Shown: piece by piece, positions 6,497 to 43,625 of the stretch
How the letters are laid out: the number at the start of each line of letters is the position of its first letter
Position numbering within the stretch: position 1 is the stretch's first letter
From: Bdellovibrionales bacterium
GTDB taxonomy: Bacteria; Bdellovibrionota; Bdellovibrionia; Bdellovibrionales; UBA1609
DNA length: 64,000 bases
Direction: 5' to 3'
Assembly: GCA_965205645.1 (NCBI GenBank)
Contig: OZ242172.1
Coordinates: 576,122 to 640,121 of the forward strand
Position numbers and translations under genes: made by a program
Notes under the pieces: generated by a model
Database searches by the model: none
What the model was told of the DNA's origin: nothing
The model's input: the letters and a program-made list of their open reading frames with translations, nothing else

Positions 6497-6709
6497 CGCA
6501 TAGAATAAGTATTGGATTTATAATGTCTTTTTTTGTTATCCTACTTTCTAAGCAGGAAGCTGATAGCTTTTGTAACTGTTCGATAAAAGCTTTAGGACAA
6601 GGATGTTCTTTATTTTTTTTTATCGGACAGGGCTTGTTGTTTCTGAATGTCTCTGATATAGGATGTGCTAGGCTTTAGGACTTTAGGCTATATAACAAAG
6701 GCACAAGCT

Positions 6710-7372
6710 ATGGCATTTCATCCAGATGATATTTTAACAAAAGTTTTTACTCGCAAGGTTGTCGGTGGATTCAATCCATCAGAAGTCACTCATTTTTTAA
6801 AATCTATTGCAGAAGATGTAGACCAGCGGAATAAAGATAAACAAGCTTTAAGAGATAAGTTAAGTGAGATGGAGGTATTTGTTCGGGAGTATCGTGATCG
6901 GGAGGAGCTATTAAAGAGTACGATTTTATCTGTGCAGAAGATGGCGGATAAAATTAAGCAGGACGCAGAAAAAGAAGCGAGATTTATATTGGAGGATGCT
7001 CACCAAAAAGCGGATTTATTAATTGCGGATGCACGGGACTCGCTAAAGACGGCGTATCAGGATTTATCGGATTTACGTAGGATGCACATTCAGTTAAAAA
7101 ATGCGTTAAAGGCAGTATTACAGTCGCATCAGGATTTATTGGAGCAGGATCCGTTTCATTCTATTTTACCAACCTCATTAAGTGGTCAGAGGGCGGATAT
7201 ACCTCTGATGGAAAAAAAAATGATGGAATCTCTAGGTCAGGCGGCACAGATGTCTACACAAGCATTTAGTAAACATGGTGTGAAGAATGATAATGTTGGT
7301 ACAGTTGACTCGCAGCAAAATATTTCCTCCAAATCGAAGGCACAGCAAAAGCACTCTTCTTTGGAAATTTAA
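6710..7372 (+). CDS. divIVA: DivIVA-domain cell-division/polarity protein
   Basis: MAFHPDDILTKVFTRKVVGGFNPSEVTHFLKSIAEDV is the canonical DivIVA N-terminus, followed by coiled-coil sequence. Start moved to the internal ATG of ORF 6665..7372. Confidence 0.8.
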   Translation: MAFHPDDILTKVFTRKVVGGFNPSEVTHFLKSIAEDVDQRNKDKQALRDKLSEMEVFVREYRDREELLKSTILSVQKMADKIKQDAEKEARFILEDAHQKADLLIADARDSLKTAYQDLSDLRRMHIQLKNALKAVLQSHQDLLEQDPFHSILPTSLSGQRADIPLMEKKMMESLGQAAQMSTQAFSKHGVKNDNVGTVDSQQNISSKSKAQQKHSSLEI

Positions 7373-7410: not shown

Positions 7411-8169
7411 ATGAAAATATTAATTGGTAAGCATAATTTGCGACTTAGTAAAATTATTTTTTTATTAGGTATTTTATGGGGTTGTTCATCTCCGCAATCT
7501 TCTGTTGCGCCGGAAGAGACAGAGCAAGAAGATTCTGGTGTGTTTGGAGTTCAGACGATATGTCATCGGGATGAAGGTTGCACAGCTTCTTGTCACGAAT
7601 TATTTGTCGGAGATTCGGATCATGCAAACAAATGTATGGATCAGACGGTAGGGGATGTGAGGGCATTAAAAGTAGTATTGGCAGCGATGGAAAAAGGTTC
7701 TTGGTCTTCTATTAAACCGGATCAATTAGAGAGGGCTTTGAATTTTGATTCAGATCTTTGGCTTCCTTATGTGGACATTAACAAACCATGGAGCAGGGCT
7801 TTTTTAAAGCGGGTGGCGGAAGAACCTAAGATAGCGGAGTTACTAGACGATAATGAGGTTTTGCGGCGAGCTTTTATGTCTTTGGTGTTATTAGGTTCTC
7901 AGGACGATCAGATTTTAGGTGGAATGCGGGAATATGTGGATACAGATGAGAATCAGACTTTTCTTGGAGTGGCGGCATTAAATAAAAACGATAAAGCATT
8001 TGAAGAGGGGCATCGTTTGTTATCTGATGTTTGTCAGAAGAGGCAGTTATGCATTCAACGTGTGTATTGTGCCATTTACGAAGATATTGTGTTTACACGT
8101 TTGAACGATTTAAGTTTATCAGATGAAGTCACAGATAGTGGTCGTGTCTCAGTTGCTATTTGCAATTAA
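7411..8169 (+). CDS. Cys-rich secreted lipoprotein, paralog family member 1 of 8 (short form)
   Basis: Lipobox-like LLGILWG|C. CHRDEGCTASCHELF (C-x5-C-x3-C) motif and C-terminal CQKRQLCIQRVYC motif, both shared with the other members. Confidence 0.6.
   Translation: MKILIGKHNLRLSKIIFLLGILWGCSSPQSSVAPEETEQEDSGVFGVQTICHRDEGCTASCHELFVGDSDHANKCMDQTVGDVRALKVVLAAMEKGSWSSIKPDQLERALNFDSDLWLPYVDINKPWSRAFLKRVAEEPKIAELLDDNEVLRRAFMSLVLLGSQDDQILGGMREYVDTDENQTFLGVAALNKNDKAFEEGHRLLSDVCQKRQLCIQRVYCAIYEDIVFTRLNDLSLSDEVTDSGRVSVAICN
8147..8169 (+). repeat. Left copy of the 23-bp direct repeat bracketing the inserted cassette (also the 3' end of family member 1)
   Basis: tctcagttgctatttgcaattaa versus tctcagtcgctatttgcaattaa at 9553-9575 (one mismatch). 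Confidence 0.85.
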
Positions 8170-8368
8170 TGGGGACAAATTTCTAAAAAAATTAAACACA
8201 ACCAAAAATAGTGGTAAGTTGCTTGAGATAATAAGTTTTTATATTATAATTTTGCTATGGAAATCTGCAAGCAGTCATAGAATTACTGCTAAAGATGTTG
8301 CTTTTCTTTAAGTTTGTGCTTGAATGAATTTAAATTCATGACGATAATAAAAGAAGGAGTTTATTACT

Positions 8369-8578
8369 ATGAATCGTCTAAAAGAATTTCAAACATCCGA
8401 TTTGAAATATATATCAAAAAAGAGAAGAGAAGAGATTGAACAGGTGTTTAATACTTTAGGCTTGATGAATCAGAGCAATTTACCAAATTATTCTTATCCA
8501 TCTGATGGCTATAATATGCCATTTAAACAGTTTTCTGTATTAGAGAATAAAAAGATCATTTTCAGTAGTTCCAGTTAG
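8369..8578 (+). CDS. Small hypothetical protein (first gene of the inserted cassette)
   Basis: 69-aa ORF preceded by aaggag about 9 nt upstream. Its stop lies 3 nt before the start of the protease gene. No motif recognised. Confidence 0.4.
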   Translation: MNRLKEFQTSDLKYISKKRREEIEQVFNTLGLMNQSNLPNYSYPSDGYNMPFKQFSVLENKKIIFSSSS

Positions 8579-8581
8579 ATT

Positions 8582-9490
8582 ATGCCCAGTTGGAATGACA
8601 TTTTAAAAGAAATACAAAAAGAAATACAAAAAGATTCTGACAAAAATCCTTTTCATACTGTCAGACAAAAATATATTGATAAGCTTTTTAAAAAACGTCA
8701 GAGAAATGTTATTACTTACTATTCTGGCTGGCTTCAAAAATCTAATATAAAAGGTATTGAAATAAACGATAATGATAAAAATGCTTTTATGGCAGTTATT
8801 TATCAATTAGATCGATCGAAAGGATTAGATTTAATACTTCATACTCCTGGCGGTGAAGTAGCTGCAACAGAATCCTTAATTGATTATTTGAGAGAAATGT
8901 TTGATTTAAACATTGAAGTGTTTGTTCCTCAGATTGCTATGTCAGCGGGAACAGTGGTTGCTTGTGCTTCCAAACTGATACATATGGGAAAACAATCTAA
9001 TTTAGGTCCCATTGACCCTCAAATTGGAGGGCTGCCAGCTAGTGCTATATTGGATGAATTTGAAAAAGCGGCGCGAGAGATTAAAGAGCAACCAGAAAAA
9101 ATTCCATTATGGCAAGTTATTGTCAGTAAATATCATCCCAGTCTTATATTATCTTGTGAAAACGCCATTGAATGGTCGAAGGAAATAGCAAAGAAATACT
9201 TAGAGACAGGGATGTTTTCTAAGGATGCAGATATAGATATTTCTAAAATAGTGAATCATCTTTCGGATCACAAAAAAATGAAAACTCATTTTAGACATAT
9301 TGGCCTTAAGGAAGCTCAAAAGATTGGCTTAAAGATTACTCCTCTTGAAGAAGATAATGAACTTCAAGATATAGTTTTAACAATTCATCATTCCTATATG
9401 CATACATTGAATAGCACTCCTGCCATTAAAATTGTAGAAAATCATATTGGAGTTGGCCAGCTCCAGAGTTTACCAGTAGCTTCTAAATAA
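8582..9490 (+). CDS. SDH-family (Clp/SppA-fold) serine protease
   Basis: LDLILHTPGGEVAATESL and IAMSAGTVVACASKLIHMGKQSNLGPIDPQIGG match the PF01972 serine dehydrogenase proteinase / ClpP-fold signature, with the Ser in MSAG. Confidence 0.75.
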   Translation: MPSWNDILKEIQKEIQKDSDKNPFHTVRQKYIDKLFKKRQRNVITYYSGWLQKSNIKGIEINDNDKNAFMAVIYQLDRSKGLDLILHTPGGEVAATESLIDYLREMFDLNIEVFVPQIAMSAGTVVACASKLIHMGKQSNLGPIDPQIGGLPASAILDEFEKAAREIKEQPEKIPLWQVIVSKYHPSLILSCENAIEWSKEIAKKYLETGMFSKDADIDISKIVNHLSDHKKMKTHFRHIGLKEAQKIGLKITPLEEDNELQDIVLTIHHSYMHTLNSTPAIKIVENHIGVGQLQSLPVASK

Positions 9491-9510
9491 AATTGAAATC
9501 TTCTCCAGAT

Positions 9511-9543
9511 GCGGGAGTGGTGAAGTCACACCCCTTTGGGAGG
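9511..9543 (+). repeat. A-repeat, partial (head end only)
   Basis: gcgggagtggtgaagtcacacccctttgggagg corresponds to the CGCGGCGAAGTCAC-C5TTG5 end of the family. Confidence 0.6.
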
Positions 9544-9552
9544 CGAGTTATA

Positions 9553-9575
9553 TCTCAGTCGCTATTTGCAATTAA
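9553..9575 (+). repeat. Right copy of the 23-bp direct repeat bracketing the inserted cassette
   Basis: tctcagtcgctatttgcaattaa. It could also encode VAICN-stop like the left copy. Confidence 0.85.
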
Positions 9576-9580
9576 CGTAG

Positions 9581-9631
9581 TTTCTCAGGTAAAAATTTCT
9601 GTTCAAAGATTCAGACATATGTTTTGCCACC
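9581..9631 (+). repeat. Solo half of a B-repeat
   Basis: tttctcaggtaaaaatttctgttcaaagattcagacatatgttttgccacc matches the TCAAAAG-TCAGACATGCGTTTTG arm of the B family. Confidence 0.6.
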
Positions 9632-9688
9632 TTGCCATTGGGTCGGCGAGGACATTTATTTGTTAAAATGATTTACTAGTTTCTTCAG

Positions 9689-9788
9689 TTAAAAATCCAC
9701 CTCAAAAGTTCAGACATGCGTTTTGTTGTAAAGCGGACTTGCAGTCGCTTTGCAACAAAGCCGAACTCGTTTTGAGATGGATTTTTAA
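9689..9788. repeat. B-repeat hairpin element (100 bp)
   Basis: ttaaaaatccacctcaaaagttcagacatgcgttttgttgtaaagcggacttgcagtcgctttgcaacaaagccgaactcgttttgagatggatttttaa. The outer 19 nt are perfectly self-complementary. Confidence 0.85.
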
Positions 9789-9797
9789 TTAAAGAAA

Positions 9798-9875
9798 TTT
9801 ACATGATTTGTAAATATAATATGCGTGCAAGGAATCGCGGTGAAGTCACTCCCCCTTGGGGGGGCTAAGGTCTGG
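9798..9875 (+). repeat. A-repeat copy (short-core variant)
   Basis: tttacatgatttgtaaatataatatgcgtgcaaggaatcgcggtgaagtcactcccccttgggggggctaaggtctgg. Confidence 0.8.
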
Positions 9876-9999
9876 ATTTTTATTTCGATTTCAGATTTTT
9901 TAATTCCATGACCGATACTTAAGTATAGTGAAGTATGCACAATAGGTCTTTGCTGACATAATTTATAAATGAGTGAGGTAAATACCAAATAGGTTGTCT

Positions 10000-11091
10000 A
10001 TGAAGTTTAAAATATTTGTTTTATTTATTTGTTTGGTAGTGGCTTATTTATCTGCTTGTGGTCTTTACAACAGTAGCACGGATGATGTGTTTAGTTATAG
10101 CAATTCTAGTCGCTCGGGAGATGCGGGTGACGGGGATATTCCGCGCTTGTCTGAACGTTCAAAATCACGTCCAGATTTAGACGATCAACCTTGTGAAGAT
10201 CGAGAGGCTTGTCGCATTGTGTGTAAGGCTATGTATGATGATGTAGATAGTGAAGAAGAGTGTGTAGAATTAACTTATGGCAAGGTGGAAGCTTTAGAGG
10301 AAGTGTATTTAGCTTTAAGAAATGGCGAAACTGACGACACTGACGAAAATGCCGATCCCAATTTAAATGACATAGATTTTGATGATTTAGAAGAATATTT
10401 AGATATTGGATGGGATGGTTGGCTAGATGTTGTGATTCCTAAACATGTAAGGGATAAAGATTATGATAAAATATTTAATACTCTAAAATGGATTGCAGAT
10501 AATGGTGGAGCATCGGATGCACTGATGAATGTCCGGCGAGACACTAGGTACGAGCACCATGGTATTTTAAAAGGATTATTTTTAAATTATTGTCGTCCTG
10601 ATTCTGCTGGCGGTTGTGGTGCAGATAGTAGTGTAACTACAGTAACTACTTCTGCAGATGTAGCTGTTGGTCACAGTATTGAGTTTGATTATAACGCTGG
10701 TGAATTAAAGTGTTCTATATCGTCGCCGTCACAGTCTGAAATAATAATTGCATCTATTACAGAAGATCGTAAGAAAGAATTATTGATTGCGTTGAGTGCA
10801 TTAGGATCTAACTATCTAAGTAGTATTCAAAGTTTTTTTAATTATGCAGCAAATCGTAGGTATGATAATGCTCTTGAGTTAGCTCATCAGCTATTGGAAG
10901 TTGCGTGTGAAACGGATTCTGGTACTGGGTCGGTTAAATTTGAGCAATGTATTCGTGGATTTTATTGTTGGTTAAATGCTCACCATTCTGATAGTGACAG
11001 TCAAATCCTGCCAGCCGATTTTGAAGAAATAGAAATGAGTTTAAATAGTATTAATTTATCCTGTACTTGCGCTAATTTTACAGACATATAG
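10000..11091 (+). CDS. Cys-rich acidic secreted lipoprotein, paralog family member 2
   Basis: Canonical lipobox LSA|C. CEDREACRIVCKAMY, LEEYLDIGWDGW, LKWIADNG and C-terminal CIRGFYCW motifs. Confidence 0.65.
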   Translation: MKFKIFVLFICLVVAYLSACGLYNSSTDDVFSYSNSSRSGDAGDGDIPRLSERSKSRPDLDDQPCEDREACRIVCKAMYDDVDSEEECVELTYGKVEALEEVYLALRNGETDDTDENADPNLNDIDFDDLEEYLDIGWDGWLDVVIPKHVRDKDYDKIFNTLKWIADNGGASDALMNVRRDTRYEHHGILKGLFLNYCRPDSAGGCGADSSVTTVTTSADVAVGHSIEFDYNAGELKCSISSPSQSEIIIASITEDRKKELLIALSALGSNYLSSIQSFFNYAANRRYDNALELAHQLLEVACETDSGTGSVKFEQCIRGFYCWLNAHHSDSDSQILPADFEEIEMSLNSINLSCTCANFTDI

Positions 11092-11121
11092 TCAGTGAAT
11101 ATTATTTAGATGTTTTAAAAT

Positions 11122-12294
11122 ATGGAAAAGGTAAAAAAGATGGAACAACAATTAAACAGTGATTTTAAAAAAATTAGACAGCCAACTACTTGGTTTTTTA
11201 TGGCTATGATTTTTATTTTTACTTTGCTAATAGGTATGGAGTTATTTGGTTGTTCGGGTCGTCCTGGTGCTTCTGGGGTATTTGATAATAATCAGAATCA
11301 ATTTTCTTCAGATGATAGTACGGAAAATTCCGGCATATTTGAAAGTGCTGATGGGCGATTAAATTCAGATGATTTGTGCTATAACAATGAATCGTGTGTG
11401 GAATTATGTAACTCTATGCTGAAAGATTTTTCCGATCAAAAGAGATGTTATTCTTATCAAGAAGTGGATGTGCAGGCGTTTAGGGATACTTATAACAATC
11501 TGGCTTTAGGTCAAAATTTAGGTGATGTAGACTCGGATGAAATGGAATCTTTTTTGGATTTTGGTGTGGAGATATGGCGGGACGCCATTACAGGTTTTGA
11601 GCGAGATTGGCAAAGTGGTTGTGAAGTAGGTGCAGATGAACGGCTAAGTGATTGCCAGGGTGATGATTATTATTTGCAACGTGGTTATACCCGGCAAGGT
11701 GCAGCAGCGGCGCTTAGTTGGATTGCCCGTAGTGATTGGCTCGCAAAACTATTGCTAGATTATGATAATGATTTTGTCGTTATAGACGCACTGGTTGCTG
11801 TTTTAATAGATCCTGATCTTCCTAAAAAATATATAAATTTAGATTCGCCTAATACAGAAGTGATTGAATCAATTAAAGTATTTCCTGATGAAGAGCAGTG
11901 TCGGTCATATGTTAATCCAACATCAGATAATGATCCAGCTGAACCTTTAACAGAAAATTTAGCATTTAATATTCCCTGTTTAGATCAGAATTTAAATTAT
12001 ATATTATTAGCTCGGAAATATGATAATGAAGAATCTATTTTGTTAGGTGATAGGTATTGTAGTTATCTGGGTGTAGATTGTACTTTAGAAACAGCTGAGA
12101 TTTTGTTTCAAGCCGCTCAAAATGAAGGCAGAGTATATTCTTTTATTTGTGATTTACTTAGAGATGCTGGACTGATCAGTAATTGTGGTAATGATGAATG
12201 CACAGCTTGTCAAAGTTTTCAGAGAATGCTTGGTAATCCTGTTTCTGCGTGTGAAGCTGATCCTATTACTGATCAGCAACCTTGTCTTCCTTAG
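11122..12294 (+). CDS. Cys-rich acidic secreted lipoprotein, paralog family member 3
   Basis: Lipobox LFG|C. CYNNESCVELCNSML, MESFLDFGVEIW and LSWIARSDW motifs, many further Cys. Start uncertain (several in-frame ATGs). Confidence 0.65.
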   Translation: MEKVKKMEQQLNSDFKKIRQPTTWFFMAMIFIFTLLIGMELFGCSGRPGASGVFDNNQNQFSSDDSTENSGIFESADGRLNSDDLCYNNESCVELCNSMLKDFSDQKRCYSYQEVDVQAFRDTYNNLALGQNLGDVDSDEMESFLDFGVEIWRDAITGFERDWQSGCEVGADERLSDCQGDDYYLQRGYTRQGAAAALSWIARSDWLAKLLLDYDNDFVVIDALVAVLIDPDLPKKYINLDSPNTEVIESIKVFPDEEQCRSYVNPTSDNDPAEPLTENLAFNIPCLDQNLNYILLARKYDNEESILLGDRYCSYLGVDCTLETAEILFQAAQNEGRVYSFICDLLRDAGLISNCGNDECTACQSFQRMLGNPVSACEADPITDQQPCLP

Positions 12295-12295
12295 T

Positions 12296-12332
12296 AAAAA
12301 ACCTTGTTTAAAAGTTCAGACATATGTTTTAC
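12296..12332 (+). repeat. Solo half of a B-repeat directly after the stop of family member 3
   Basis: aaaaaccttgtttaaaagttcagacatatgttttac. Confidence 0.55.
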
Positions 12333-12368
12333 TTCAGACATTTGTAAAAATGATTACAAAATTGTAAG

Positions 12369-12486
12369 TTTCTCTATTTAAAAACTCTACTCAAAACGAG
12401 TTCGGCTTTGGTGCAGAGCGACTGTAAGTCTGCTTTGCAACAAAACGCATGTCTGAGTTTTTGAGTAGAGTTTTTAAATAGAGAAA
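12369..12486. repeat. B-repeat hairpin element (118 bp)
   Basis: tttctctatttaaaaactctactcaaaa-cgagttcggctttggtgcagagcgactgtaagtctgctttgcaacaaaacgcatgtctgagt-ttttgagtagagtttttaaatagagaaa. The 28-nt outer arms are perfectly complementary. Confidence 0.9.
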
Positions 12487-12505
12487 TATACATCATAATT
12501 AGTGA

Positions 12506-12574
12506 AGTCGTGACAGGTGTGCAGCGGAGTTGCGGCGAAGTCACTCCCCCTTGGGGGGCGGGGCTTAGGTCTGG
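12506..12574 (+). repeat. A-repeat copy (short-core variant)
   Basis: agtcgtgacaggtgtgcagcggagttgcggcgaagtcactcccccttggggggcggggcttaggtctgg. Shares the trailing ggct(a/t)aggtctgg with the copy at 9798. Confidence 0.8.
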
Positions 12575-12770
12575 TAATTGGTGAAAAATCTAAGGAAATA
12601 TGTTTAAGAATCCGAATTTATATTAAGATAAAGATTGTGTCAGTAGACATCATCTGGAGAGATAACACAATAATAAACATTAAAAGTAATCATTGGACAT
12701 TAGTAAAAGCTGACAGAGTGATTAAGACATAATAAAGGATGAAAAAAAAATTAACGAAGGGGAATAGGCA

Positions 12771-13913
12771 ATGCGTGGAATTAAAGAAGTATGGAATTTC
12801 ATTTGTGGTGCAGATAAAAAACTTATTCAAAAAGTTTTTGGCATATTAGTCAGTGGTTTTATTTTAACGGCGATTGTGTCAGCGGGCTTTATGTCTTGCA
12901 CACCGAATTTTGATGTGGATTCTGGCAGTTCCAGGGATAGCAATAACAATAGTGATGACGACGATGATGACGAAGATGATGGAGAAAAGTGCCTAGGTCA
13001 CGAAACTTGTGAAAAAATTTGTGAAAAAATTTATTATGCAGGCAGAGATCAAGTGGATTGCCAGGAAGAAGGCAGGAACAAAGTTGGTCGTTTGGATGAA
13101 ATATATGATCTTTTAAAAACAGGCGATTCTAGAGATTTAGAGAAAATTTTCCCAGATGAAGATGGGGTAGAACTAGATGATTTGGAAGATTATTTAAATA
13201 TTGGTATTTCTGGTGTGGAGGATTTGATTGATGAGAATAGTAAGGGTGATGATTATTGGGATGACATAAATAAGTTGGGATCTGTTTTAAAATGGATTAT
13301 TGATGAAGAAGATGTAGCAAATGTGTTAAATGGGTTAGATGATAATGGAGGACATCGTATTTTAGAAGAGCTTCTTGATAGAATGGAGGTTACTAAAGAC
13401 GGCGATTGTATTAGTAAGAATAGCCTTGCTTGTGGTACTAGTCCAACTATTAATCACGTAAATCATTATGACTATGATAGTAATAGTGGCCAAATTGAAA
13501 TTTGTACTGATAATAGAGATCCAACATTAAAAGGATCTGTTGATCTAGTTAATGGCGCTGATATACAATTATATGATGCTTTATCTTGTGTATATAATGA
13601 CTTAAGGGCTAATGGAAAAGATCAAAATGTGTTTTCTTATGCTAGTGTAAAAAATAATAGCATTATTTTTAATATGGCTTATAATTTATTAAATGATATT
13701 TGTGAAAATGTAGATGATCGCGATCCTGATCATCAAAGAGCTTGTAGAAAAGCTTTACTTTGTTGGACAGGTGTTCAAAGTGAAGAAGGTGATGATCCAA
13801 ATGAAAATTTTTTTAGGGAGTATGTGAATGATCATAGAAATGATTTAGAAAAAGATAGCGGTGGTTCTGACTATAATCAATGTCAACCAAGACATTTTGC
13901 CGATTTCTTTTAA
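12771..13913 (+). CDS. Cys-rich acidic secreted lipoprotein, paralog family member 4
   Basis: FMS|C lipobox-like site, poly-Asp/Glu linker, CLGHETCEKICEKIY, LEDYLNIGISG, LKWIIDEEDV, CRKALLCW, C-terminal NQCQPRHFADFF. Closest paralog of member 5. Confidence 0.7.
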   Translation: MRGIKEVWNFICGADKKLIQKVFGILVSGFILTAIVSAGFMSCTPNFDVDSGSSRDSNNNSDDDDDDEDDGEKCLGHETCEKICEKIYYAGRDQVDCQEEGRNKVGRLDEIYDLLKTGDSRDLEKIFPDEDGVELDDLEDYLNIGISGVEDLIDENSKGDDYWDDINKLGSVLKWIIDEEDVANVLNGLDDNGGHRILEELLDRMEVTKDGDCISKNSLACGTSPTINHVNHYDYDSNSGQIEICTDNRDPTLKGSVDLVNGADIQLYDALSCVYNDLRANGKDQNVFSYASVKNNSIIFNMAYNLLNDICENVDDRDPDHQRACRKALLCWTGVQSEEGDDPNENFFREYVNDHRNDLEKDSGGSDYNQCQPRHFADFF

Positions 13914-14360
13914 CCAGTTTTTTTCATTTCCTTTCAGTGCATCTTAAATTAGCAAAAAAATCCATGGAATATTATTATGAAAAATTTAATTCCACAAATT
14001 GTACTAGAATTAGTTAGCCTTATTAATAAAAGGTTTAGTAGTAGTTTGACAGAAAAGGAAAAAGAAAAGGAAAAAGAAAAGCTCCAATTTTTGATTGAAC
14101 AAGTTGAGCAAAAATATAAAGATTTAAAAAATTTCATTCTTTATGTGGCTGTCGGGCAGTTTATTTTAACCATTGTTGCTATGAGTGCTATTGTAACTAT
14201 GGTTGTAAATAAGATTTAATGTGAAACAATATCCAATTCTTTCATAAAATTGATCTTTATAACAATATAGCCGTTTACTCCGCTGCTATTCCAAACTTTT
14301 GTATCTATAGTTTTTTATATTTTCTAATGATCTTAATATGTTTTATACAATGCATTGGCA

Positions 14361-14512
14361 CAGTCGTGACATGCGTGCAAGGATTCACAGCGGCCGGCGA
14401 CTCGCCGCAGACATTTACTTGTAAACTTAATTAGCAAAGTTGTGACATGCGTGCAAAGAACTCGCGGCGAAAATGTCACCGGCAACTCGCCGGCCACTTT
14501 GAAGGGGGTGGA
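14361..14512 (+). repeat. Two tandem A-repeat copies (variant with a CCGGCGACTCGCCGG-type hairpin)
   Basis: cagtcgtgacatgcgtgcaaggattcacagcggccggcgactcgccg... then tttacttgtaaac...gtgacatgcgtgcaaagaactcgcggcgaaaatgtcaccggcaactcgccggccactttgaagggggtgg. Confidence 0.75.
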
Positions 14513-15128
14513 ATGGATTTTGCTAGAAGAGCTTGCAGGATTGAAAAGTGTATTCATTCACAAGCAAGAGGGCCTTCAGGAAGAGGATTTTAAATTCTTT
14601 TTTTCTAAGATTCCTGCTGAATCCAGAAAAATTATGCTAAATTATGGTTTGAAGATAATAGATACTCAGGATTCAAAGGTACGAAAAGCTTATAAAGGTC
14701 ATCAATTAAGAGGTCGTGGTGTTATAAAGCTATTATCTGAGATATGGAGTATAAAAAGACCTGCTCCGTCTAAAGTAAAGGAAATTTTTCACGATTTTGC
14801 CGATATACTGAAAAAGCTGAAAGGAAAACAAAGAAAGGACACAAGTCTAAGGATACTGGAATACTTAATTGATAATACGGGCTTAGATTTAAGGACATGG
14901 AAGAAAGCAGAGAAGTTGATTATAGAAGAGGGAATTTTAACCAGAGGAGGTGTTATGGACATAAGAGAACATATTAAAGAAAAAGGCCGTTGGGAAGGAA
15001 GACAGGAACGAAACAAGGAAGTTATTTTAAATATGCTAAAAGAGAAGGCAGATATTTCCTTTATTTCCAAAATTACAGGTTTGTCTGAGAAAGAAATAAA
15101 GAAACTAAAAAACGGTTTTTCATTATAA
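14442..15128 (+). pseudogene. Rpn/YhgA-like recombination-promoting nuclease (putative transposase), C-terminal fragment only
   Basis: The C-terminus GRWEGRQERNKEVILNMLKEKADISFISKITGLSEKEIKKLKN resembles the tail characteristic of Rpn-family proteins. No PD-(D/E)XK core is visible, and the first ~24 codons are read from an A-repeat copy. Confidence 0.4.
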
Positions 15129-15150
15129 AAAATCTGAAGATCTAATTCCC

Positions 15151-15440
15151 CTATACATTCAGCTTCATTTTCGGGTGATCTGCTGAATACGATTAATGTC
15201 TTTCACATTTTGATTACTACTTTCTTTAAGCCATGATAAAGCGATTCACAAATTAAAGTATGTCCAATTTAATATATTAAATTCATTAAATCTTGTATTC
15301 ACTCCAGTGAATCTTGTTGACACTGAAACTTATTAAATACTTCACCACTTGATCTCAGTTATGTAAATTTTTCACCTGTGCATTTCTATGAGTAATTGTT
15401 TTATTGACATTAACACTCAGTCTGTCTATAAAATTTTCAG
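15151..15440 (-). pseudogene. Scrambled pdxJ gene fragments (duplicate of the pdxJ 3' end, middle and 5' end)
   Basis: 15151-15211 matches 17282-17342. 15213-15268 matches 16790-16848, with only about 3 mismatches by eye over ~50 nt. 15310-15440 matches 17385-17512. Order is rearranged and no ORF remains. Confidence 0.7.
15404..15432 (+). promoter_or_regulatory. Candidate sigma-70 promoter (duplicate of the pstS promoter) upstream of family member 5
   Basis: TTGACA, 17-nt spacer, TATAAA. Lies in the duplicated block homologous to 17478-17506. Confidence 0.4.
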
Positions 15441-15497
15441 CAGCTCATTCAGTGAAAATCACTCAATCTTATGACATACATCAAAAGGGATGTGGAG

Positions 15498-16658
15498 ATG
15501 ACTCAAAAGAAAAATTCTGATGCATTAATAAAGCCAGTTTTTAGTCATTTAACATTTGTCATCACATTGTTTCTACAATCAACCTTTATTAGCTTGTTAT
15601 TAGCACACCCTACATTCGCCCGTTCATCCATGACAGACCGGCCGATCATTGCTGTGGCAACCAATATCGATAGAGAGAGAAAAGGTGTGAATAATGAAAA
15701 AAAATGTATGGGTCACAAAACTTGTGAGATGTGTGAAAAAATTTATGGTGCGGACAATGATAAAATAGCTTGTCAAAAAGAGAGCCTTAACAAAGTAAAT
15801 CATTTGAATAAAATATATGCTTTTTTAAAAGATGGAGATTATGAGGATTGGGATAAATTTTTCCTGGATGAAGATGAAGTGAATCTAAAATATCTAAAAG
15901 ATTACTTAAATATTGGCGATTCCGGTATAGAAAATCTTATTAAGAATCATTGGAGTGAAGATCAACTGATAAAATTCTTACAATTGATTATTGATAAAAT
16001 ACAGGTAGCGGAAATTTTATATAACTTAGCTGGAGGAAAATATCTTTTAAAAGAAATACTTCTAGCAATAAGAAATAAAACCGATCAATGTATTGGAAAT
16101 AACACTCTTAATGATTGTAATGATTCACCACACGGACATTATGGCAGAACTGGTTATGGTGTAGATTATAGTTTAGACGATGACACCGTTAATATTTGTA
16201 CTGAGGATAAAAACCCCAGTTGGTCATATACATTGGATCATCTTTTTCCATTTCCCAAAGAATTCATTTGGAAGAAAAGGAGTTTTACTTTTTTAGATGA
16301 TGATAACACGTCATTATATGACGCTTTATCTTGTTTCTCATTAATAGATAAAAGTAGCTTTTCAATTACACATTACAATGTATTTTCTTATGCTAGTATG
16401 AAAGAAAATGATTTTATTTTTAATATGGCTTATGATTTATTAAATGATACTTGTGAAGATTTTGATACTGATGAGAACGATTATAAACAACTCTGCAAAA
16501 AAGTTTCGTTTTGTTGGATTCATGAAGTAGATGAGAAACAAGGAGAGAGGAGTTTTAAATATCTTGTTGAGTTTGACTATGATGATGGTTTAGAAGGGGA
16601 TAGCGGTGGTTCTAACTATAATCAATGTGCACCAAGACATTTTGCCGAATTCTTTTAA
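15498..16658 (+). CDS. Chimeric paralog family member 5: PstS-derived leader/signal peptide fused to the Cys-rich family domain
   Basis: N-terminus MTQKKNSDAL...LLLAHPTFARSSMTDRPIIAVA is homologous at DNA and protein level to the PstS N-terminus MTQKKRSNLL...LLLATSTLAYSSMTDMPLVAAS. The rest carries CMGHKTCEMCEKIY, LKDYLNIGDSG, CKKVSFCW and NQCAPRHFAEFF. Confidence 0.75.
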   Translation: MTQKKNSDALIKPVFSHLTFVITLFLQSTFISLLLAHPTFARSSMTDRPIIAVATNIDRERKGVNNEKKCMGHKTCEMCEKIYGADNDKIACQKESLNKVNHLNKIYAFLKDGDYEDWDKFFLDEDEVNLKYLKDYLNIGDSGIENLIKNHWSEDQLIKFLQLIIDKIQVAEILYNLAGGKYLLKEILLAIRNKTDQCIGNNTLNDCNDSPHGHYGRTGYGVDYSLDDDTVNICTEDKNPSWSYTLDHLFPFPKEFIWKKRSFTFLDDDNTSLYDALSCFSLIDKSSFSITHYNVFSYASMKENDFIFNMAYDLLNDTCEDFDTDENDYKQLCKKVSFCWIHEVDEKQGERSFKYLVEFDYDDGLEGDSGGSNYNQCAPRHFAEFF

Positions 16659-16753: not shown

Positions 16754-17503
16754 TTATAATTTCTCTGTCTGGCAGATATTTAGATACTTAGTCACTACCT
16801 TCTTTAAGCCATGATAAAGCGATTCACAAATTAAAGCATGCCCAATAGAAACTTCACTCACACCTGGTACTCTTTGCAAAAAATAAGAAAGATTGTCTAA
16901 ATTTAAATCATGTCCGGCATTGATTTCTATTTTTAAATTTTTTAACTGCTCGGCTGCGCGAACATAAACAGCCGTGACTGTTTCCCTCTGAACAGTAGGC
17001 CATGCATTTGCATAAGCTTCTGTGTAAAGCTCTACACGATCCGATTGAATTTTCTGCAAAGCGCTTAATTCGGATTCTTCTAAATTAAAAGGATCTACAA
17101 ATAAAGAAGAACGAACATAGTGTTTTTTTAAAAATAAAATATTTTCAGTTAATTGGTGTATATTTTCCTTAAGCTTCCAACCGGCATTAGAAGTAAGCGC
17201 ATCAGGAGAATCCGGTACGAAAGTGCACTGGCTTGGCTTCACTGATTCAATCAGTTGCAAAAACGACCGATCCGGATATCCCTCTACATTTAACTCCACT
17301 TCCGGGTGATCCGCTAAAATACCTTTAATGTCTTTTACATCCTGGTATAAAATGTGCCGCCCATCCGGACGCGGATGCACCGTAATGCTTGTCACACCGA
17401 AACTAATTAAATCCCGCACCACTTGTCTCAGGTTAGGCAAGTTTTTCCCCCTCGCATTTCTGAGAGTGGCAATTTTATTGACATTAACACTTAGTCTAGC
17501 CAT
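16754..17503 (-). CDS. pdxJ: Pyridoxine 5'-phosphate synthase
   Basis: LSVNVNKIATLRNARG, HPRPDGRHI and the EINAGHDLN-type motif; the 249-aa length is typical for PdxJ. Confidence 0.9.
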   Translation of the reverse strand: MARLSVNVNKIATLRNARGKNLPNLRQVVRDLISFGVTSITVHPRPDGRHILYQDVKDIKGILADHPEVELNVEGYPDRSFLQLIESVKPSQCTFVPDSPDALTSNAGWKLKENIHQLTENILFLKKHYVRSSLFVDPFNLEESELSALQKIQSDRVELYTEAYANAWPTVQRETVTAVYVRAAEQLKNLKIEINAGHDLNLDNLSYFLQRVPGVSEVSIGHALICESLYHGLKKVVTKYLNICQTEKL

Positions 17504-17506
17504 AAA
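17478..17506 (+). promoter_or_regulatory. Candidate pstS promoter lying inside the 5' end of divergent pdxJ
   Basis: TTGACA, 17-nt spacer, CATAAA, about 65 nt upstream of the pstS ATG. Conserved in the duplicated copy at 15404-15432. Confidence 0.35.
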
Positions 17507-17572
17507 ATCCTTAGGCGGTTTATTCAGTAAAAATCATTCAAGCTTATAACATACATCAAAAGGGATGTGGAG

Positions 17573-18766
17573 ATGACTCAAAAGAAAAGATCTAATTTGC
17601 TGAAAAATTCGCTCTTCTTTTCTGCATTTTTACGTTTAACATTTGTTGCTGCATGGGTCATAAGCTCAATATTTACTTTGCTATTGGCAACATCCACGCT
17701 CGCTTATTCATCCATGACGGACATGCCACTTGTCGCTGCATCCGCTATCACGCAAATTAAAAAATTTGTTCGCGGAAAAAACCGCCGTCCATTACTCATT
17801 AATGGTGCAGGCGCTTCTTTCCCCTATATCCTGTACTCCAAATGGTTTTCAGAATATCAAAAGATAGATCCTTCTGTGAGAATTAATTATCGCTCCATCG
17901 GAAGCGGAGGAGGAATCCGCCAGTTCTTAATAGGTACTTTAGATTTTGGAGCTACCGATGTGCCAATTATAAAAAGTAAAATGCGCACACTCAAAACACC
18001 TCCACTACATATTCCTACCGCATTAGGCGCTGTGGTTATTAGCTATTATTTACCAACACTGAAAAATACAGATACCCTACAGCTGACACCTGTTATCCTA
18101 GCAGACATTTACCAAGGTAAAATTAAAAAATGGAATCATAAAAAAATAGTGGCCATTAACCCTAAGCTGTCTTTACCAGATCAGCAAATTGTGCCAGTGT
18201 ATCGCGCAGATGGTAGTGGTACAACAGCTGTGTTTACAGAATACCTGGCTCACTTTTCCACAGAATGGCTGCAACAAGCAGGAAAAGGTAAAGCTGTTAA
18301 CTGGCCAACCGGTATCGGAGGTAAAGGGAATGAAGGCGTGATGGGTCTTGTCCGCAAAATACCAGGCGCGATTGGTTACATTGCCTGGAGCTATGCCGCT
18401 AATATCCGATTCCCCACAGCAGCTGTCCAAAATGCATCCGGACATTTTGTAAAAGTTAGTCATGAAAATGCTAGTAACTCCGCTACACAAATTTGGAAAA
18501 AACACCACGACTTGTTTAAACCATTAGCTACTGCCAAAGGCGCTGACGCTTATCCTCTATCCTCTTATACCTACTTGCTTGTGAATCAAAAAATGCTTTC
18601 TCAAAAAGGACTCGCCATCGTAAAATTCCTTAAATGGGCTATGCAAAAAGGACAAACATTTTGCAAACCACTGCATTATATTCCACTTCCTCAACCTGTT
18701 ATACAAGCTACACTTAAACAAATAGATTCCATTTATATACCGAAAGATAATCCTATAAAAAAATGA
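17573..18766 (+). CDS. pstS: Phosphate ABC transporter substrate-binding protein
   Basis: Signal peptide, GSGGGI and YRADGSGTT motifs typical of PstS. Start moved to the ATG at 17573 (MTQKK). Confidence 0.9.
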   Translation: MTQKKRSNLLKNSLFFSAFLRLTFVAAWVISSIFTLLLATSTLAYSSMTDMPLVAASAITQIKKFVRGKNRRPLLINGAGASFPYILYSKWFSEYQKIDPSVRINYRSIGSGGGIRQFLIGTLDFGATDVPIIKSKMRTLKTPPLHIPTALGAVVISYYLPTLKNTDTLQLTPVILADIYQGKIKKWNHKKIVAINPKLSLPDQQIVPVYRADGSGTTAVFTEYLAHFSTEWLQQAGKGKAVNWPTGIGGKGNEGVMGLVRKIPGAIGYIAWSYAANIRFPTAAVQNASGHFVKVSHENASNSATQIWKKHHDLFKPLATAKGADAYPLSSYTYLLVNQKMLSQKGLAIVKFLKWAMQKGQTFCKPLHYIPLPQPVIQATLKQIDSIYIPKDNPIKK

Positions 18767-29777: not shown

Positions 29778-30026
29778 TGTATAAACTCGTTATGATTCCA
29801 TTCAGTTTTATTTCATTAAATCAAAGTACGTATTGAACACTTTTATTCTTAATATAATACGCTGCGCTTATTTGCCATGTTTTAAAAATAAAGAAACTAA
29901 AAACATTATGACAAAGTCCTCTTATAGTCTTGTTGATCCGCCCTGTCAATAAGTCCTGAAATCGCATTATCTATTAAGAAATCAAATGGATACTCCGAAG
30001 TGGAAAATAAGTGGAGAATTAAAAAA

Positions 30027-30977
30027 ATGAAATATTATCTGTGGTTGTGCTTAGTGCTACTAAGCATGGGTATTTTTTGTATCCAATGTTCTATGATTTC
30101 TTCCCCTCCAGATATACCGACTGTCACCAGGGATGCTCCGGAAAATGGATTGGACAATGAGTCTTTGTTCCCAAAGTGTGAGAGAGGAGAATGCTGTTCT
30201 GAAAATAAGGAGTGCGAAAGAATCTGTGATAATATTTTTAACAGTTTTGTACCAGCTAAGGATCGCTGTAGATCTTTGCCGCAACCATTAGTATTTGATA
30301 TTGGAGATCTGGTCAGAGGGTTGGAACACCCGATTGTTCAGGATTTAAGGCGGGTGGATGTGAAGGATGAATTTCGTCGTTTATTGGCCTTAGATTATAT
30401 GGTGTTGGTACGTATTGTAGAACGTTATAGAATAGATAAAGCACGAGAACTACTTTTATGGTTTGCTGAAGAAGATGCAGTAGCTAAGGAATTACTTAAA
30501 TTAAGGAGAGAAGATCGTAATCATTTAATGTATGCATTACTGGCTAGCGCAGGAGATCGTACTTTACCTGGATCTGCGGAAAATGGCTTAGCCAGAAACG
30601 TATCTTTTGATAAAACATTTTTTGCATTGCTTATAGATTTTCTTAATAATGATATGTTGCAAATTGTTCATGACATGCTTCGAGGGGAAATGTGTGCTCC
30701 AGACTTTGGAGAAGGTAAAAAAGCTGAGCTTTGTATATTGCGTATTTATTGTCGTGAAAGAGTTGGGTTAGATAATCAATATGTACATAATGAAGATTTG
30801 CGCACTGATATTTCTTTTCGTCTGGAAGATAAACAGTTTTTTGATTATATTCGACGAGAAGTTTACAATTCTTCTTTAGATGATTTTAATTTATCACAAC
30901 CTTTGATGAATGATATGACTTGCCAAATTGTTTGTAATGATACTTACCGTGGATGTGAAGGATGGAATTTACAATAA
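30027..30977 (+). CDS. Cys-rich secreted protein, paralog family member 6
   Basis: Signal peptide MKYYLWLCLVLLSMGIFC. CERGECCSENKECERICDNIF, LLWFAEEDAV and C-terminal CILRIYCRE motifs. Confidence 0.65.
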   Translation: MKYYLWLCLVLLSMGIFCIQCSMISSPPDIPTVTRDAPENGLDNESLFPKCERGECCSENKECERICDNIFNSFVPAKDRCRSLPQPLVFDIGDLVRGLEHPIVQDLRRVDVKDEFRRLLALDYMVLVRIVERYRIDKARELLLWFAEEDAVAKELLKLRREDRNHLMYALLASAGDRTLPGSAENGLARNVSFDKTFFALLIDFLNNDMLQIVHDMLRGEMCAPDFGEGKKAELCILRIYCRERVGLDNQYVHNEDLRTDISFRLEDKQFFDYIRREVYNSSLDDFNLSQPLMNDMTCQIVCNDTYRGCEGWNLQ

Positions 30978-32101: not shown

Positions 32102-32137
32102 AAATAAGAAAATAGTCTTTTATATTAGGAGGATACT

Positions 32138-33237: not shown

Positions 33238-33840
33238 ATGAGAGATACTATTCAGTGCAGAGTATTTTACTATCTAAAAACCATGGTTTTTTTGTTTGCT
33301 TTATTTCCAATGATTAGTTTCGCATCACCTTTAGAGAATGTATGGGATACATTGTTTCCAACTACTAGAGCAATCTCAAGAAGTGAAGTTCAGAACCTTT
33401 TACAAAATTCTTCTGAAAAAAGTATAATGCATATTCAAACCTATAAAGGATGCGAACCAGCCTTTGTAACTCTTGGAACAAAAGTATGGTTGAGCATGAC
33501 GGCACAAAAGACGGAAAAAAAGACCTGTTCTGTTGCTGTTCATCCAGGCAATAAAATATCCGTTAGTTTTAGCAATAAAACTGTTCTTGTGGCACCAATG
33601 AGCAGTAGAGCGGTCGTTGGTGATATAAAATATAACCTAGCCATTGGTGAGATAGATGGACACAATGTTTTAATGGTTGCATATGATGAAAATGGTACAA
33701 TCTCTTATGCAATATATACTGTTTATGATTTAAATGACAATGTAGTAGATTCTTATCTACAAGATGAATGGGATACATGGAAAGATTCTATTAGATATTG
33801 TGTTATTGCACCTGTATATCAACAATCAATGTGTGATTAG
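33238..33840 (+). CDS. Small secreted hypothetical protein, tandem duplicate copy 1
   Basis: Signal peptide MVFLFALFPMISFA|SP, Cys-containing ~180-aa mature part. Near-identical to the next gene. Confidence 0.6.
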   Translation: MRDTIQCRVFYYLKTMVFLFALFPMISFASPLENVWDTLFPTTRAISRSEVQNLLQNSSEKSIMHIQTYKGCEPAFVTLGTKVWLSMTAQKTEKKTCSVAVHPGNKISVSFSNKTVLVAPMSSRAVVGDIKYNLAIGEIDGHNVLMVAYDENGTISYAIYTVYDLNDNVVDSYLQDEWDTWKDSIRYCVIAPVYQQSMCD

Positions 33841-43568: not shown

Positions 43569-43625
43569 AAATAACTCAGTGGTTGAGCATGAGTGTAAAA
43601 TAATATGGAATGTTTTGGAGATTAA

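Follow-up and report, generated by a model that had tools for sequence, protein, structure and literature searches.

Gene content of the locus

The window analysed here, a 64,000-nucleotide stretch of a Bdellovibrionales contig, carries two arrays of related genes, m1–m5 at 7411-16658 and m6–m8 at 30000-33148. For the first array, five co-oriented genes had been described beforehand; all five open reading frames (ORFs) are present at these coordinates on the + strand, and every motif string quoted for them is found. A profile HMM made from 60 relatives outside the window matches exactly the eight ORFs m1–m8 (E 1e-40 to 1e-74), which bears out the earlier count of eight paralogues in 64 kb. No further ORF of at least 60 aa in the window scores with it, even at E<=10. 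The features are as follows, the E values of m1–m8 being those of this external profile.

6665-7372, + strand: divIVA, upstream neighbour of m1 (Pfam DivIVA, E 1.4e-28)
7411-8169, + strand: m1, 252 aa, the minimal member; lipobox LWGC, 25-aa linker, eight-Cys core predicted as all-alpha, no insert (E 1e-40)
8170-9575, no strand: cassette insertion (~1.4 kb) flanked by direct repeats of 23 nt that correspond to the 3' end of m1
8582-9490, + strand: gene of a ClpP-like SDH-type serine protease, cassette cargo, outside the family (Pfam PF01972, E 1e-21)
9680-9803, no strand: palindromic intergenic repeat of about 124 nt, found by repeat search; second copy at 12363-12486
9994-11091, + strand: m2, 365 aa; canonical lipobox LSAC, 44-aa linker, core with a Cys-containing insert (E 1.5e-65)
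11122-12294, + strand: m3, 390 aa; lipobox LFGC, middle Cys of the C-terminal cluster missing (E 5e-47)
12771-13913, + strand: m4, 380 aa; lipobox-like FMSC, poly-Asp linker, predicted helical core with a beta-rich insert (E 5e-74)
14442-15128, + strand: remnant of a 'Transposase_31' gene (YhgA/Rpn-like), shorter than its counterpart in the related locus L086 by a 476-bp deletion
15216-15521, no strand: degenerate copy of the region from pdxJ to the 5' end of pstS, including the intergenic stretch and with an internal deletion in pdxJ (blastn, 81% over 204 nt to 17394-17596)
15471-16658, + strand: m5, 395 aa; duplicate of m4 (43% identity) with a PstS-type signal peptide and no lipobox (E 1.3e-46)
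30000-30977, + strand: m6, opening the second array; atypical CIQC cleavage motif (E 4.5e-49)
30962-32101, + strand: m7, second in the second array; first Cys of the motif missing (E 2.3e-54)
32138-33148, + strand: m8, third in the second array; lipobox IFGC (E 3.2e-51)

As proposed in the preliminary description, mobile or cargo DNA is interspersed with the arrays; repeats, cassette and transposase remnant are all recovered. The direct repeats that bound the cassette (8147-8169 and 9553-9575) are identical at 22 of 23 positions. Homology with L086 ends at 8170 and resumes at 9865; L086 has an NYN gene at this place and locus L001 is without the cassette. In locus L099 a 50%-identical protease gene follows the m1-type gene. 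The protease gene of the window gives no PADLOC match. A 27-nt repeat associated with the palindromic repeat occurs in six copies in the window versus zero expected. The transposase remnant corresponds, at 85% identity, to the C-terminal portion of L086 8610-9659, and this L086 gene matches PF04754 (E 1.4e-19). The pdxJ-pstS duplicate, where repeats are found too, supplies the upstream region and the signal peptide of m5, and the m5 N-terminus matches PstS (E 1e-12).

Homology of the eight genes

Several lines of evidence besides the external profile connect the genes. Pairwise phmmer comparisons link m1–m5 (E 1e-5 to 1e-62), and the pattern C-x5-C-x2-3-C-x10-16-C is present in seven of the eight members versus one of 226 other ORFs of the window. 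An exhaustive HMM search retrieves 732 cluster representatives at E<=1e-3 (556 at E<=1e-10). The profile, the phmmer links and the cysteine pattern show that the homology is real and not compositional. The opposite reading, in which biased composition gives unrelated low-complexity ORFs similar motifs by chance or the ORFs are no genes at all, could appeal to the low identity among the eight (14-26%, with m4/m5 at 43% as the exception) and to m6 and m8, which have no significant pairwise phmmer match to the remaining members. However, the profile that matches all eight at E<=1e-40 matches nothing else in the window, orthologues are found in more than ten other genomes, dN/dS is below 1 and the AlphaFold2 (AF2) models reach pLDDT 90-96. 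This reading is refuted by the external profile, by dN/dS and by the orthologues elsewhere, and it retains hardly any probability. On the sequence comparisons, m1–m8 are real members of a protein family without a name.

Export signal, linker and conserved cysteines

In the family layout, a Cys-terminated signal peptide is followed by 25-54 aa of polar or acidic linker and by a domain, predicted to be all-alpha, that holds eight conserved Cys and a near-invariant Trp; the other near-invariant positions are hydrophobic residues. The complete set of eight Cys, four N-terminal and four C-terminal, is found in 136 of 145 representatives. As a working signature we take an all-alpha domain of ~200 aa or more with C-x5-C-x3-C-x12-C close to its beginning, L-x-W-[IV]-A midway and, at its end, C-x5-13-C-x5-C together with a terminal Cys. 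Departures from it are seen in m7 (no first Cys), m3 (no middle C-terminal Cys), m5 (C-x5-C-x2-C, shortened from x3) and in m1 and m5, where the Trp is replaced (by Leu in m5). Three further motif claims made earlier hold in part. The motif LE(D/E)(Y/F)L(D/N)(I/F)G is present in m2–m4 and roughly in m5 (LKDYLNIG), but it is degenerate in m1 (LERALNFD). The central Trp motif exists in m2–m4 only, m1 reading LKRVA and m5 LQLII. The C-terminal spacing proposed for all five, C-x4-6-C-x5-C, fits m1 (C-x5-C-x5-C), but m2, m4 and m5 have C-x13-C-x5-CW and m3 lacks the middle Cys.

Lipoprotein signals were judged by regular expression only, requiring a positive N-terminus, a hydrophobic stretch and [LVI][ASTVI][GAS]C within about 15-45 residues. 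By this measure m1 (LWGC), m2 (LSAC), m3 (LFGC), m4 (FMSC) and m8 (IFGC) fit or nearly fit a lipobox, the residues before the Cys are atypical in m6 (IQC) and m7 (VHC), and the motif is absent in m5. Of 148 representatives, 125 carry a lipobox among their first 60 residues, 58 by the strict pattern and 67 by a relaxed one; the remaining ones mostly end the signal in SCG-, NC- or QC-type sequences. Median pI of the representatives is 4.4 and their median Cys count is 13. The earlier picture of an exported, acidic, Cys-rich and mostly lipobox-bearing paralogous family is thus genuine, with the exception that m5, whose signal peptide copies that of PstS, has no lipobox.

The eight conserved Cys most likely form four disulfide bonds outside the cytoplasm. 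They could instead serve as ligands for Zn, Fe-S or Cu or in thiol-redox chemistry, and the strict spacing of the four N-terminal Cys, the four more conserved C-terminally and the acidity of the proteins would suit such a role. However, the signal peptides are of Sec or lipoprotein type with no twin-arginine motif, so that the proteins would fold after export, in an oxidising periplasm and with no cofactor assembled beforehand. The conserved Cys number is even, the motif of m5 is one residue shorter, m7 and m3 have one Cys fewer each, a conserved His is shared by no more than about five of the eight, and no metal-binding family is matched. A metal or redox function is therefore very improbable.

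Predicted fold and library searches

The AF2 models of m1 (pLDDT 96.5, pTM 0.91) and m4 (pLDDT 90.4, pTM 0.90) are of high confidence. Both are all-alpha, except for a beta insert in m4 with strands at core residues 164-216. The preliminary description could assign the genes to no named family, and this is upheld by every library searched. In Pfam-A 2025 and NCBIfam 20.0, none of 68 members reaches a cut-off and only isolated matches at E 1e-3 to 1e-2 occur; the best hit of a profile search of PDB sequences has E 0.079. Structure prediction followed by Foldseek, which had been recommended, gives no match at E<=0.001 in the PDB for the models of m1 and m4, and the BFVD fold search gives none. 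Pfam scans find no TPR, ARM, HEAT or ankyrin repeat profile, nor is there a significant superposition on such repeats. Sel1 (PF08238) is absent both from m1–m5 at E<=1 and from the 68 members at E<=0.01. The N- and C-terminal halves are dissimilar by hhalign (probability 0.5%), so no internal repeat is found.

ARM proteins, ankyrin proteins and designed helical repeats head the Foldseek matches, all of them insignificant (E 0.14-0.2, TM 0.26-0.29). They bring to mind inhibitor or immunity proteins, by analogy with Bd3460, an ankyrin-type protein by which Bdellovibrio protects itself, and with lipoprotein lysozyme inhibitors. Each paralogue would then neutralise a different lytic enzyme, be it a predatory or peptidoglycan hydrolase of the bacterium itself or a lysozyme or protease of the host. 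The helical, exported and seemingly non-enzymatic domain, the several old paralogues with distinct surfaces and the Bdellovibrio-like lineage agree with this idea. However, the likeness to such binders stays at E above 0.1 and TM below 0.3, and no hydrolase or toxin gene consistently adjoins the arrays. The idea amounts to a special case of the binding scaffold proposed below, and as a specific function it is improbable.

Distribution and gene order

Across 185,579 species genomes scanned for the motif, the m1 type is found only in 'Bdellovibrionales' MAGs of 1.3-2.3 Mb. Among the GTDB pattern matches, 16 of 17 are family members, and all 16 of these lie in Bdellovibrionales MAGs. The m1 orthologues P0003 and P0004 are 72-74% identical to m1, and P0003 is encoded on contigs of the sponge-metagenome run SRR1576521. 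The m5 orthologue P0001 is 90% identical.

Two gene orders are conserved across genomes, proC-divIVA-m1-m2-m3-m4/m5 and a separate m6-m7-m8 triad. An m1-type gene directly follows divIVA in 11 related loci (L001, L085, L086, L087, L091, L092, L099, L101, L103, L105, L106), where the stop and start codons often overlap. An m2-type gene comes after m1 in L001, L086, L091, L101, L103 and L104, and also in L085 with an AAA_14 gene between; the third place is taken by an m3-type gene in L085, L086, L091, L103 and L104. Orthologues of the triad are found in L084 and L089 for m6 (42% and 47%, in first place), m7 (43% and 51%) and m8 (32% and 38%). One circular genome of 1.41 Mb (L089, L091, L095) carries at least seven members. 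Each paralogue has a same-order orthologue in distant genomes, in which DivIVA is only 58-65% identical, which makes the duplications old and the array a conserved one.

Such conservation would also be expected of housekeeping periplasmic adaptors, that is, helical lipoproteins anchored in the outer membrane that span the periplasm on their linkers and organise the cell-wall or division machinery in the manner of NlpI, LpoA/LpoB or BamD, not facing outwards. LpoB has a tether comparable in kind to the 25-54-residue linkers. The coupling of m1-type genes to divIVA and the retention of every paralogue as an ordered orthologue in genomes reduced to 1.3-2.3 Mb are in favour of this possibility. 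Deep divergence is only moderately above that of the neighbours (m6 and m7 at 47-51% versus proC at 55% and divIVA at 64%). However, adjacency to the gene of a cytoplasmic protein is weak functional evidence, and in Bdellovibrio bacteriovorus yggU, not a family member, follows divIVA (PMC7186360). The Pfam scans give no TPR or other adaptor-repeat signature, and the strain-level mosaic replacement and hypervariable inserts in m2–m4 described below would be unusual for core morphogenetic adaptors. For the family as a whole we consider adaptors rather unlikely.

Divergence between close strains

Between close strains the flanking genes are 95-99% identical (dS 0.04-0.10), and m1 evolves no faster (96%, dS 0.055). 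Its attachment to divIVA together with this conservative evolution fits a housekeeping role in the envelope, at least for m1. Over aligned positions, the identity falls to 90% in m5, 83% in m2, 79% in m3 and 60% in m4, and m2–m5 diverge in mosaic blocks with dS up to 0.81. In the comparison with L086, the divergence is concentrated at about aa 185-300 and at the C-terminus (local dN/dS 1.1-1.5), while the N-terminal halves are ~97% identical; the insert of m4 is the site of the most variable window. The high dS in m2–m4 suggests recombination and not fast adaptive change, and the mosaic divergence with its hypervariable inserts probably arose by recombination.

The genes had been called a rapidly evolving family. 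With respect to the fast turnover of alleles between close strains this is right, but the identity of 14-26% and the same-order orthologues speak against a recent expansion. Calculated over whole genes, dN/dS between strains stays under 1 in all members (0.35-0.69), with local windows at 1.0-1.5, and diversifying selection is therefore not demonstrated.

Proposed function

Our preferred reading, to which we give slightly less than an even chance, is that the family consists of exported binding scaffolds that are held together by disulfides, have no enzymatic activity and are anchored to the envelope. The N-terminal signal peptide would end, in six to seven of the eight members of the window, in a Cys that is putatively lipid-modified; m5, having no lipobox and thus not being a lipoprotein, is a counterpoint. 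A flexible linker of 25-54 polar or acidic residues would then carry the compact all-helical domain of about 200 residues. This domain would be rigid and serve as a scaffold rather than an enzyme, because only Cys, Trp and core hydrophobic residues are conserved family-wide. In m2, m4 and m5, the beta-rich, Cys-containing insert would form a variable head. Head and C-terminal helices are probably the ligand-facing surface, since these parts differ between close strains. The ancient paralogues, kept in fixed order in a small-genome Bdellovibrionales-like clade that stems at least in part from sponge metagenomes, suggest that the envelope displays eight specificities, none redundant with another and most likely directed at host, prey or medium. 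What the data show is the family relationship, the export signals, the Cys pattern, the fold as predicted, the lack of library matches, the gene order and the mosaic divergence; lipidation, disulfides, a place at the outer membrane or surface and ligand binding are inferred.

A bolder version of the scaffold reading is also conceivable, though unlikely. The proteins would have a structurally new, disulfide-locked all-alpha fold and make up the main outward-facing protein coat in a clade of reduced-genome, sponge-associated Bdellovibrionota, and each of the eight ancient paralogues would bind a different host or prey ligand via a recombining variable head. If so, they would represent a class of proteins at the symbiosis or predation interface that has so far escaped notice, with a role comparable to the one that ankyrin proteins and further eukaryote-like repeat proteins play in other symbionts of sponges.

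Comparison with known systems

The arrays resemble those of Borrelia Mlp/Erp and Mycoplasma Vlp as tandem lipoprotein genes with mobile DNA between them and recombination-driven allele mosaics. However, the Borrelia and Mycoplasma families expand and turn over within lineages, whereas here old orthologous groups keep a fixed order between genomes whose DivIVA is ~60% identical. Unlike in those arrays, no phase-variation repeats were found here.

Disulfides are central to envelope function in Chlamydia, and the chlamydial OmcA and OmcB are likewise Cys-rich envelope proteins of a host-associated reduced genome, OmcA being a lipoprotein. The present family differs in matching no Pfam or NCBIfam model and in its domain, which is modelled as a well-packed helical unit. 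The packed domain and the even number of conserved Cys suggest intramolecular rather than network-forming disulfides.

The TPR-type outer-membrane proteins NlpI, LpoA, BamD and PilF/PilW are lipid-anchored, all-helical and non-enzymatic, as the present proteins are predicted to be. Some of these adaptors have long flexible tethers, and m1 is positionally linked to a cell-division gene. In contrast to them, the present family shows neither TPR nor a significant fold match, and it is Cys-rich and strongly acidic with eight paralogues and strain-variable inserts.

The Sel1-like repeat proteins HcpA-HcpE of Helicobacter are also exported, Cys-rich, all-alpha paralogues of host-associated small genomes. 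In both families there is no enzymatic signature, disulfides are assumed to hold the helices together and members vary between strains. The Hcp proteins are built from Sel1/SLR repeats with one disulfide per repeat, whereas here a single eight-Cys pattern extends across a domain without internal repeat, and most members carry a lipobox-type signal followed by a long linker.

Eight genes of the window form one family

The eight members lie in two arrays. All five of the co-oriented genes that the preliminary description had placed at 7411-16658 were found as ORFs, 252-395 aa in length, and every motif string quoted for them is present.

Members of the family in the window, with the motif at the end of the signal peptide
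m1; 7411-8169; ORF co-oriented with m2-m5; lipobox LWGC
m2; 9994-11091; ORF co-oriented with m1 and m3-m5; lipobox LSAC
m3; 11122-12294; ORF co-oriented with m1, m2, m4 and m5; lipobox LFGC
m4; 12771-13913; ORF co-oriented with m1-m3 and m5; lipobox-like FMSC
m5; 15471-16658; ORF co-oriented with m1-m4; no Cys-ending signal peptide
m6; 30000-30977; ORF of the second array; IQC, atypical
m7; 30962-32101; ORF of the second array; VHC, atypical
m8; 32138-33148; ORF of the second array; lipobox IFGC

Since most paralogue pairs share just 14-26% identity (43% for m4/m5), homology was tested in three ways. Pairwise phmmer comparison linked m1-m5 and m7 and left m6 and m8 unlinked. A profile built from 60 relatives outside the window matched all eight members with E values of 1e-40 to 1e-74, and gave no match, even at E<=10, to any other window ORF of at least 60 aa in six frames. 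The pattern C-x5-C-x2-3-C-x10-16-C is present in seven of the eight members versus 1 of 226 other ORFs. The proposed profile-HMM check thus confirms the family and the count of eight paralogues in 64 kb, and a compositional artefact or coincidence is excluded, because the external profile finds these eight ORFs and no others. Two large Cys-rich exported proteins with pilin-like hydrophobic N-termini (507 and 1111 aa) are encoded at 42045-46961, with a secretin gene further downstream (58438-61206); by HMM, the two proteins are unrelated to the family.

Protein anatomy and predicted fold

Seven of the eight window members have a signal peptide with a Cys at its end, in line with the initial reading of a mostly present lipobox. 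It is followed by a low-complexity linker of 25-54 residues, polar or acidic in composition. Among 148 family representatives, 125 carry a strict or relaxed lipobox pattern, and the medians are 362 aa in length, 13 Cys and a pI of 4.4.

Eight Cys are conserved in alignments of 68 and 145 sequences, arranged as C-x5-C-x3-C-x12-C at the start of the domain and as C-x5-13-C-x5-C plus a terminal Cys at its end. A Trp within L-x-W-I-A is near-invariant in the same alignments. The full set of eight Cys occurs in 136 of the 145 sequences, and an analysis of Cys co-loss, aimed at disulfide pairing, found that they are almost never lost. No polar residue other than Cys is conserved family-wide in the alignments; the His of 'AHxLL' is found in about five of the eight paralogues. 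A metal or redox role seems very improbable to us and ranks well below the housekeeping role considered with the arrays. The N- and C-terminal halves are not detectably related by hhalign, which led us to reject an origin of the domain by duplication of a half with four Cys.

With the family alignments as input, AlphaFold2 predicted a purely helical m1 core (pLDDT 96.5, pTM 0.91) and an m4 core of about 17 helices (pLDDT 90.4, pTM 0.90) with a small beta-rich insert at core residues 164-216.

No named relative found for the family

That the genes could not be assigned to any named family was borne out by the searches. Pfam-A gave nothing beyond noise for m1-m5 at E<=1, no Pfam or NCBIfam model exceeded its cut-off for 68 members, and a PADLOC scan gave no match for the family. 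The family profile found no relative among PDB sequences (best E 0.079). Foldseek with the m1 and m4 models returned no PDB match at E<=0.001, the best being designed helical repeats, ARM and ankyrin proteins (E 0.14-0.2, TM <0.3), and no match in BFVD. The predicted fold is confident and without a solved relative in the PDB, which does not prove it novel. The family is described nowhere in the literature searched; it is real and unnamed. A phage or plasmid origin was considered and rejected; phage genomes contained no tblastn match to m2. On the cluster, Rfam gave only a sub-threshold chance match, and a promoter and terminator scan stayed at chance level.

Distribution

Word-indexed homologue searches with family alignments gave no more than 4 and 9 proteins and made an exhaustive HMM search necessary. 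Among 1.84 billion cluster representatives it found 732 proteins at E<=1e-3, of which 556 passed E<=1e-10. Wherever the source of a family protein was looked up, it proved to be a metagenome assembly or a MAG. In GTDB genomes, a locus search with m1 as sole query came up empty. The m1-type C-terminal motif was therefore written by hand as a degenerate DNA pattern, which matched at 17 sites when scanned against 185,579 species genomes. The HMM identifies 16 of these as family members, every one of them in a 'Bdellovibrionales bacterium' MAG (chromosomes of 1.33-2.31 Mb); the remaining match, from an Actinomycetota MAG, arose by chance. The closest relatives of the window SufS are likewise from 'Bdellovibrionales' MAGs (53%), and the proC-divIVA order at the window locus is that of Bdellovibrio bacteriovorus (PMC7186360). 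The family is clade-restricted.

Contigs of run SRR1576521, labelled sponge metagenome, encode the m1 orthologue P0003. Sponges have been reported to harbour small-genome, low-GC Bdellovibrionota, with no clear view of whether these act as predators or as symbionts, or of their interaction with the host (PMC9944714). We infer a sponge origin for all of these Bdellovibrionales MAGs.

Ancient and ordered arrays

When members of related loci were assigned to paralogue types by best match, the gene order of the window was reproduced.

Order of paralogue types in related loci
L086, a close relative; m1-m2-m3-m4-m5
L085; m1-m2-m3-m4-m4; members 32-46% identical, DivIVA 58% identical
L091, L101, L103 and L104; divIVA-m1-m2(-m3)
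L084 and L089; m6-m7-m8 triad, 32-51% identity; neighbourhoods differ

With orthologues in conserved order across related loci, the duplications therefore predate the radiation of the clade; m4/m5 alone looks like a younger duplication. One circular genome of 1.41 Mb holds at least seven members in conserved arrays (L089, L091 and L095), which probably makes the family central to cell-envelope biology in this clade. In 11 loci an m1-type gene lies directly 3' of divIVA, and in many of them its start codon overlaps the divIVA stop codon. This linkage of m1 to divIVA, together with the long-term retention of each paralogue, suggests the main rival of the binding role proposed below, namely a periplasmic housekeeping adaptor. 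We regard it as a rather unlikely but serious alternative.

An expanded m3-type member, P0062 (L085 10001-12175, 724 aa), has about 400 residues between its conserved N- and C-terminal parts, and in this middle part profile positions 40-78 match weakly six times, in no case significantly (E 8.6-160). Large internal insertions are apparently tolerated. Directly after m8 stand two tandem paralogous genes (33238-33840 and 33883-34497; 200 and 204 aa) with near-identical signal peptides and no Pfam match, which we take as a putative second small secreted family. Compared at gene-call level, no similar pair follows the triad in L084 or L089.

Inserted DNA between the members

The members are interleaved with repeats, a transposase remnant and an inserted cassette, all three as first described, and the cargo of the gaps differs from genome to genome.

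Elements between and around the members
8170-9575; cassette of about 1.4 kb with a small ORF and an SDH-type ClpP-like protease gene
14442-15128; YhgA/Rpn-like 'Transposase_31' gene between m4 and m5, with a 476-bp deletion
9680-9803 and 12363-12486; palindromic element of about 124 nt, upstream of m2 and of m4
9837, 12532, 26319, 27642, 37724 and 41685; 27-nt repeat GCGGYGAAGTCACTCCCCCTTGGGGGG
L086 2271-2969, 11522-12185 and 17174-18892; NYN (PADLOC HEC-09), Gp49/HI1420 toxin-antitoxin pair and GmrSD (HEC-06)

On both sides of the cassette stand the final codons of m1, as a 23-nt direct repeat (8147-8169 and 9553-9575, 22/23 identical), which suggests site-specific insertion at the m1 3' end. 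Its small ORF (8369-8578, 69 aa) abuts the protease gene, as does an 83-aa ORF in L086; L099 has a 50%-identical protease gene 3' of its m1-type gene, and L086 has a different SDH protease between m3 and m4. The 'Transposase_31' gene is intact in L086 (8610-9659). Rpn-type genes also adjoin or flank the arrays in L083, L085 and L088 and may therefore promote the rearrangements. The dispersed 27-nt repeat (six window copies against none expected), which like the palindromic element occurs upstream of m2 and m4, and that element itself resemble intergenic elements of REP or MITE type. The window sites corresponding to the defence-type cargo of L086 are empty, and this stretch of chromosome is therefore an insertion hot spot. 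Besides being ancient and ordered, the two arrays double as insertion hot spots.

Upstream of m5 (15216-15521; source 16794-17596) lies a second copy of pdxJ, here internally deleted, of the pdxJ-pstS intergenic region and of the 5' end of pstS, so that the signal peptide of m5 is that of PstS, encoded by duplicated first codons. This makes m5, which has no lipobox Cys, a soluble exported protein; a pstS-type promoter and ribosome-binding site probably came with the duplicate and may drive the gene. A GTG or ATG near 15495-15501 is a likelier start codon for m5 than the ATG of 15471. A functional link of the family to the neighbouring pstSCA was rejected, the duplicated pstS 5' region being confined to m5 and a local rearrangement.

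Divergence from a close relative

Window versus L086; identities over aligned positions
proC, divIVA, pdxJ, pstC, pstA, sufS (flanks); aa 95-99%; dS 0.04-0.10; dN/dS 0.04-0.29
m1; aa 96%; dS 0.055; dN/dS 0.35
m5; aa 90%; dS 0.062; dN/dS 0.69
m2; aa 83%; dS 0.25; dN/dS 0.41
m3; aa 79%; dS 0.19; dN/dS 0.65
m4; aa 60%; dS 0.81; dN/dS 0.37

Sliding windows reveal mosaics. Between the two loci, m2 and m3 share about 97% identity in their N-terminal halves, and strong divergence (dS 0.3-0.7) sets in beyond about aa 185, where local dN/dS rises to 1.1-1.5 in the insert and in the C-terminal helices. Such a pattern is consistent with allele replacement through recombination, one face being under relaxed or diversifying selection. 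As regards positive selection, local values above one do occur, at gene-wide dN/dS of 0.35-0.69; the mosaic pattern is not proof of it.

Proposed role and comparison with known systems

Taken together, we tentatively favour, at somewhat less than even confidence, a lipidated, disulfide-bonded and linker-tethered protein with a non-enzymatic binding role and a variable contact surface. The exported protein would be lipidated, the eight Cys would form four intramolecular disulfides, and the linker would tether the domain to the envelope; the insert and the C-terminal face would then make the ligand-contacting, strain-variable surface. An inhibitor or immunity role is improbable and was placed below the housekeeping adaptor. 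The members give a defined set of candidates, open to testing, for the interface with host or prey, the family is a clean sequence marker for the clade, and its confidently predicted fold, without a solved relative, is a good target for structure determination.

The Cys-rich Sel1-repeat proteins of Helicobacter and the helical outer-membrane lipoprotein adaptors are among the closest analogues, and when membership was tested the family fell outside both. Its kind is familiar, that of paralogous exported Cys-rich helical lipoproteins in a host-associated bacterium; new are the family itself and the architecture of its arrays.
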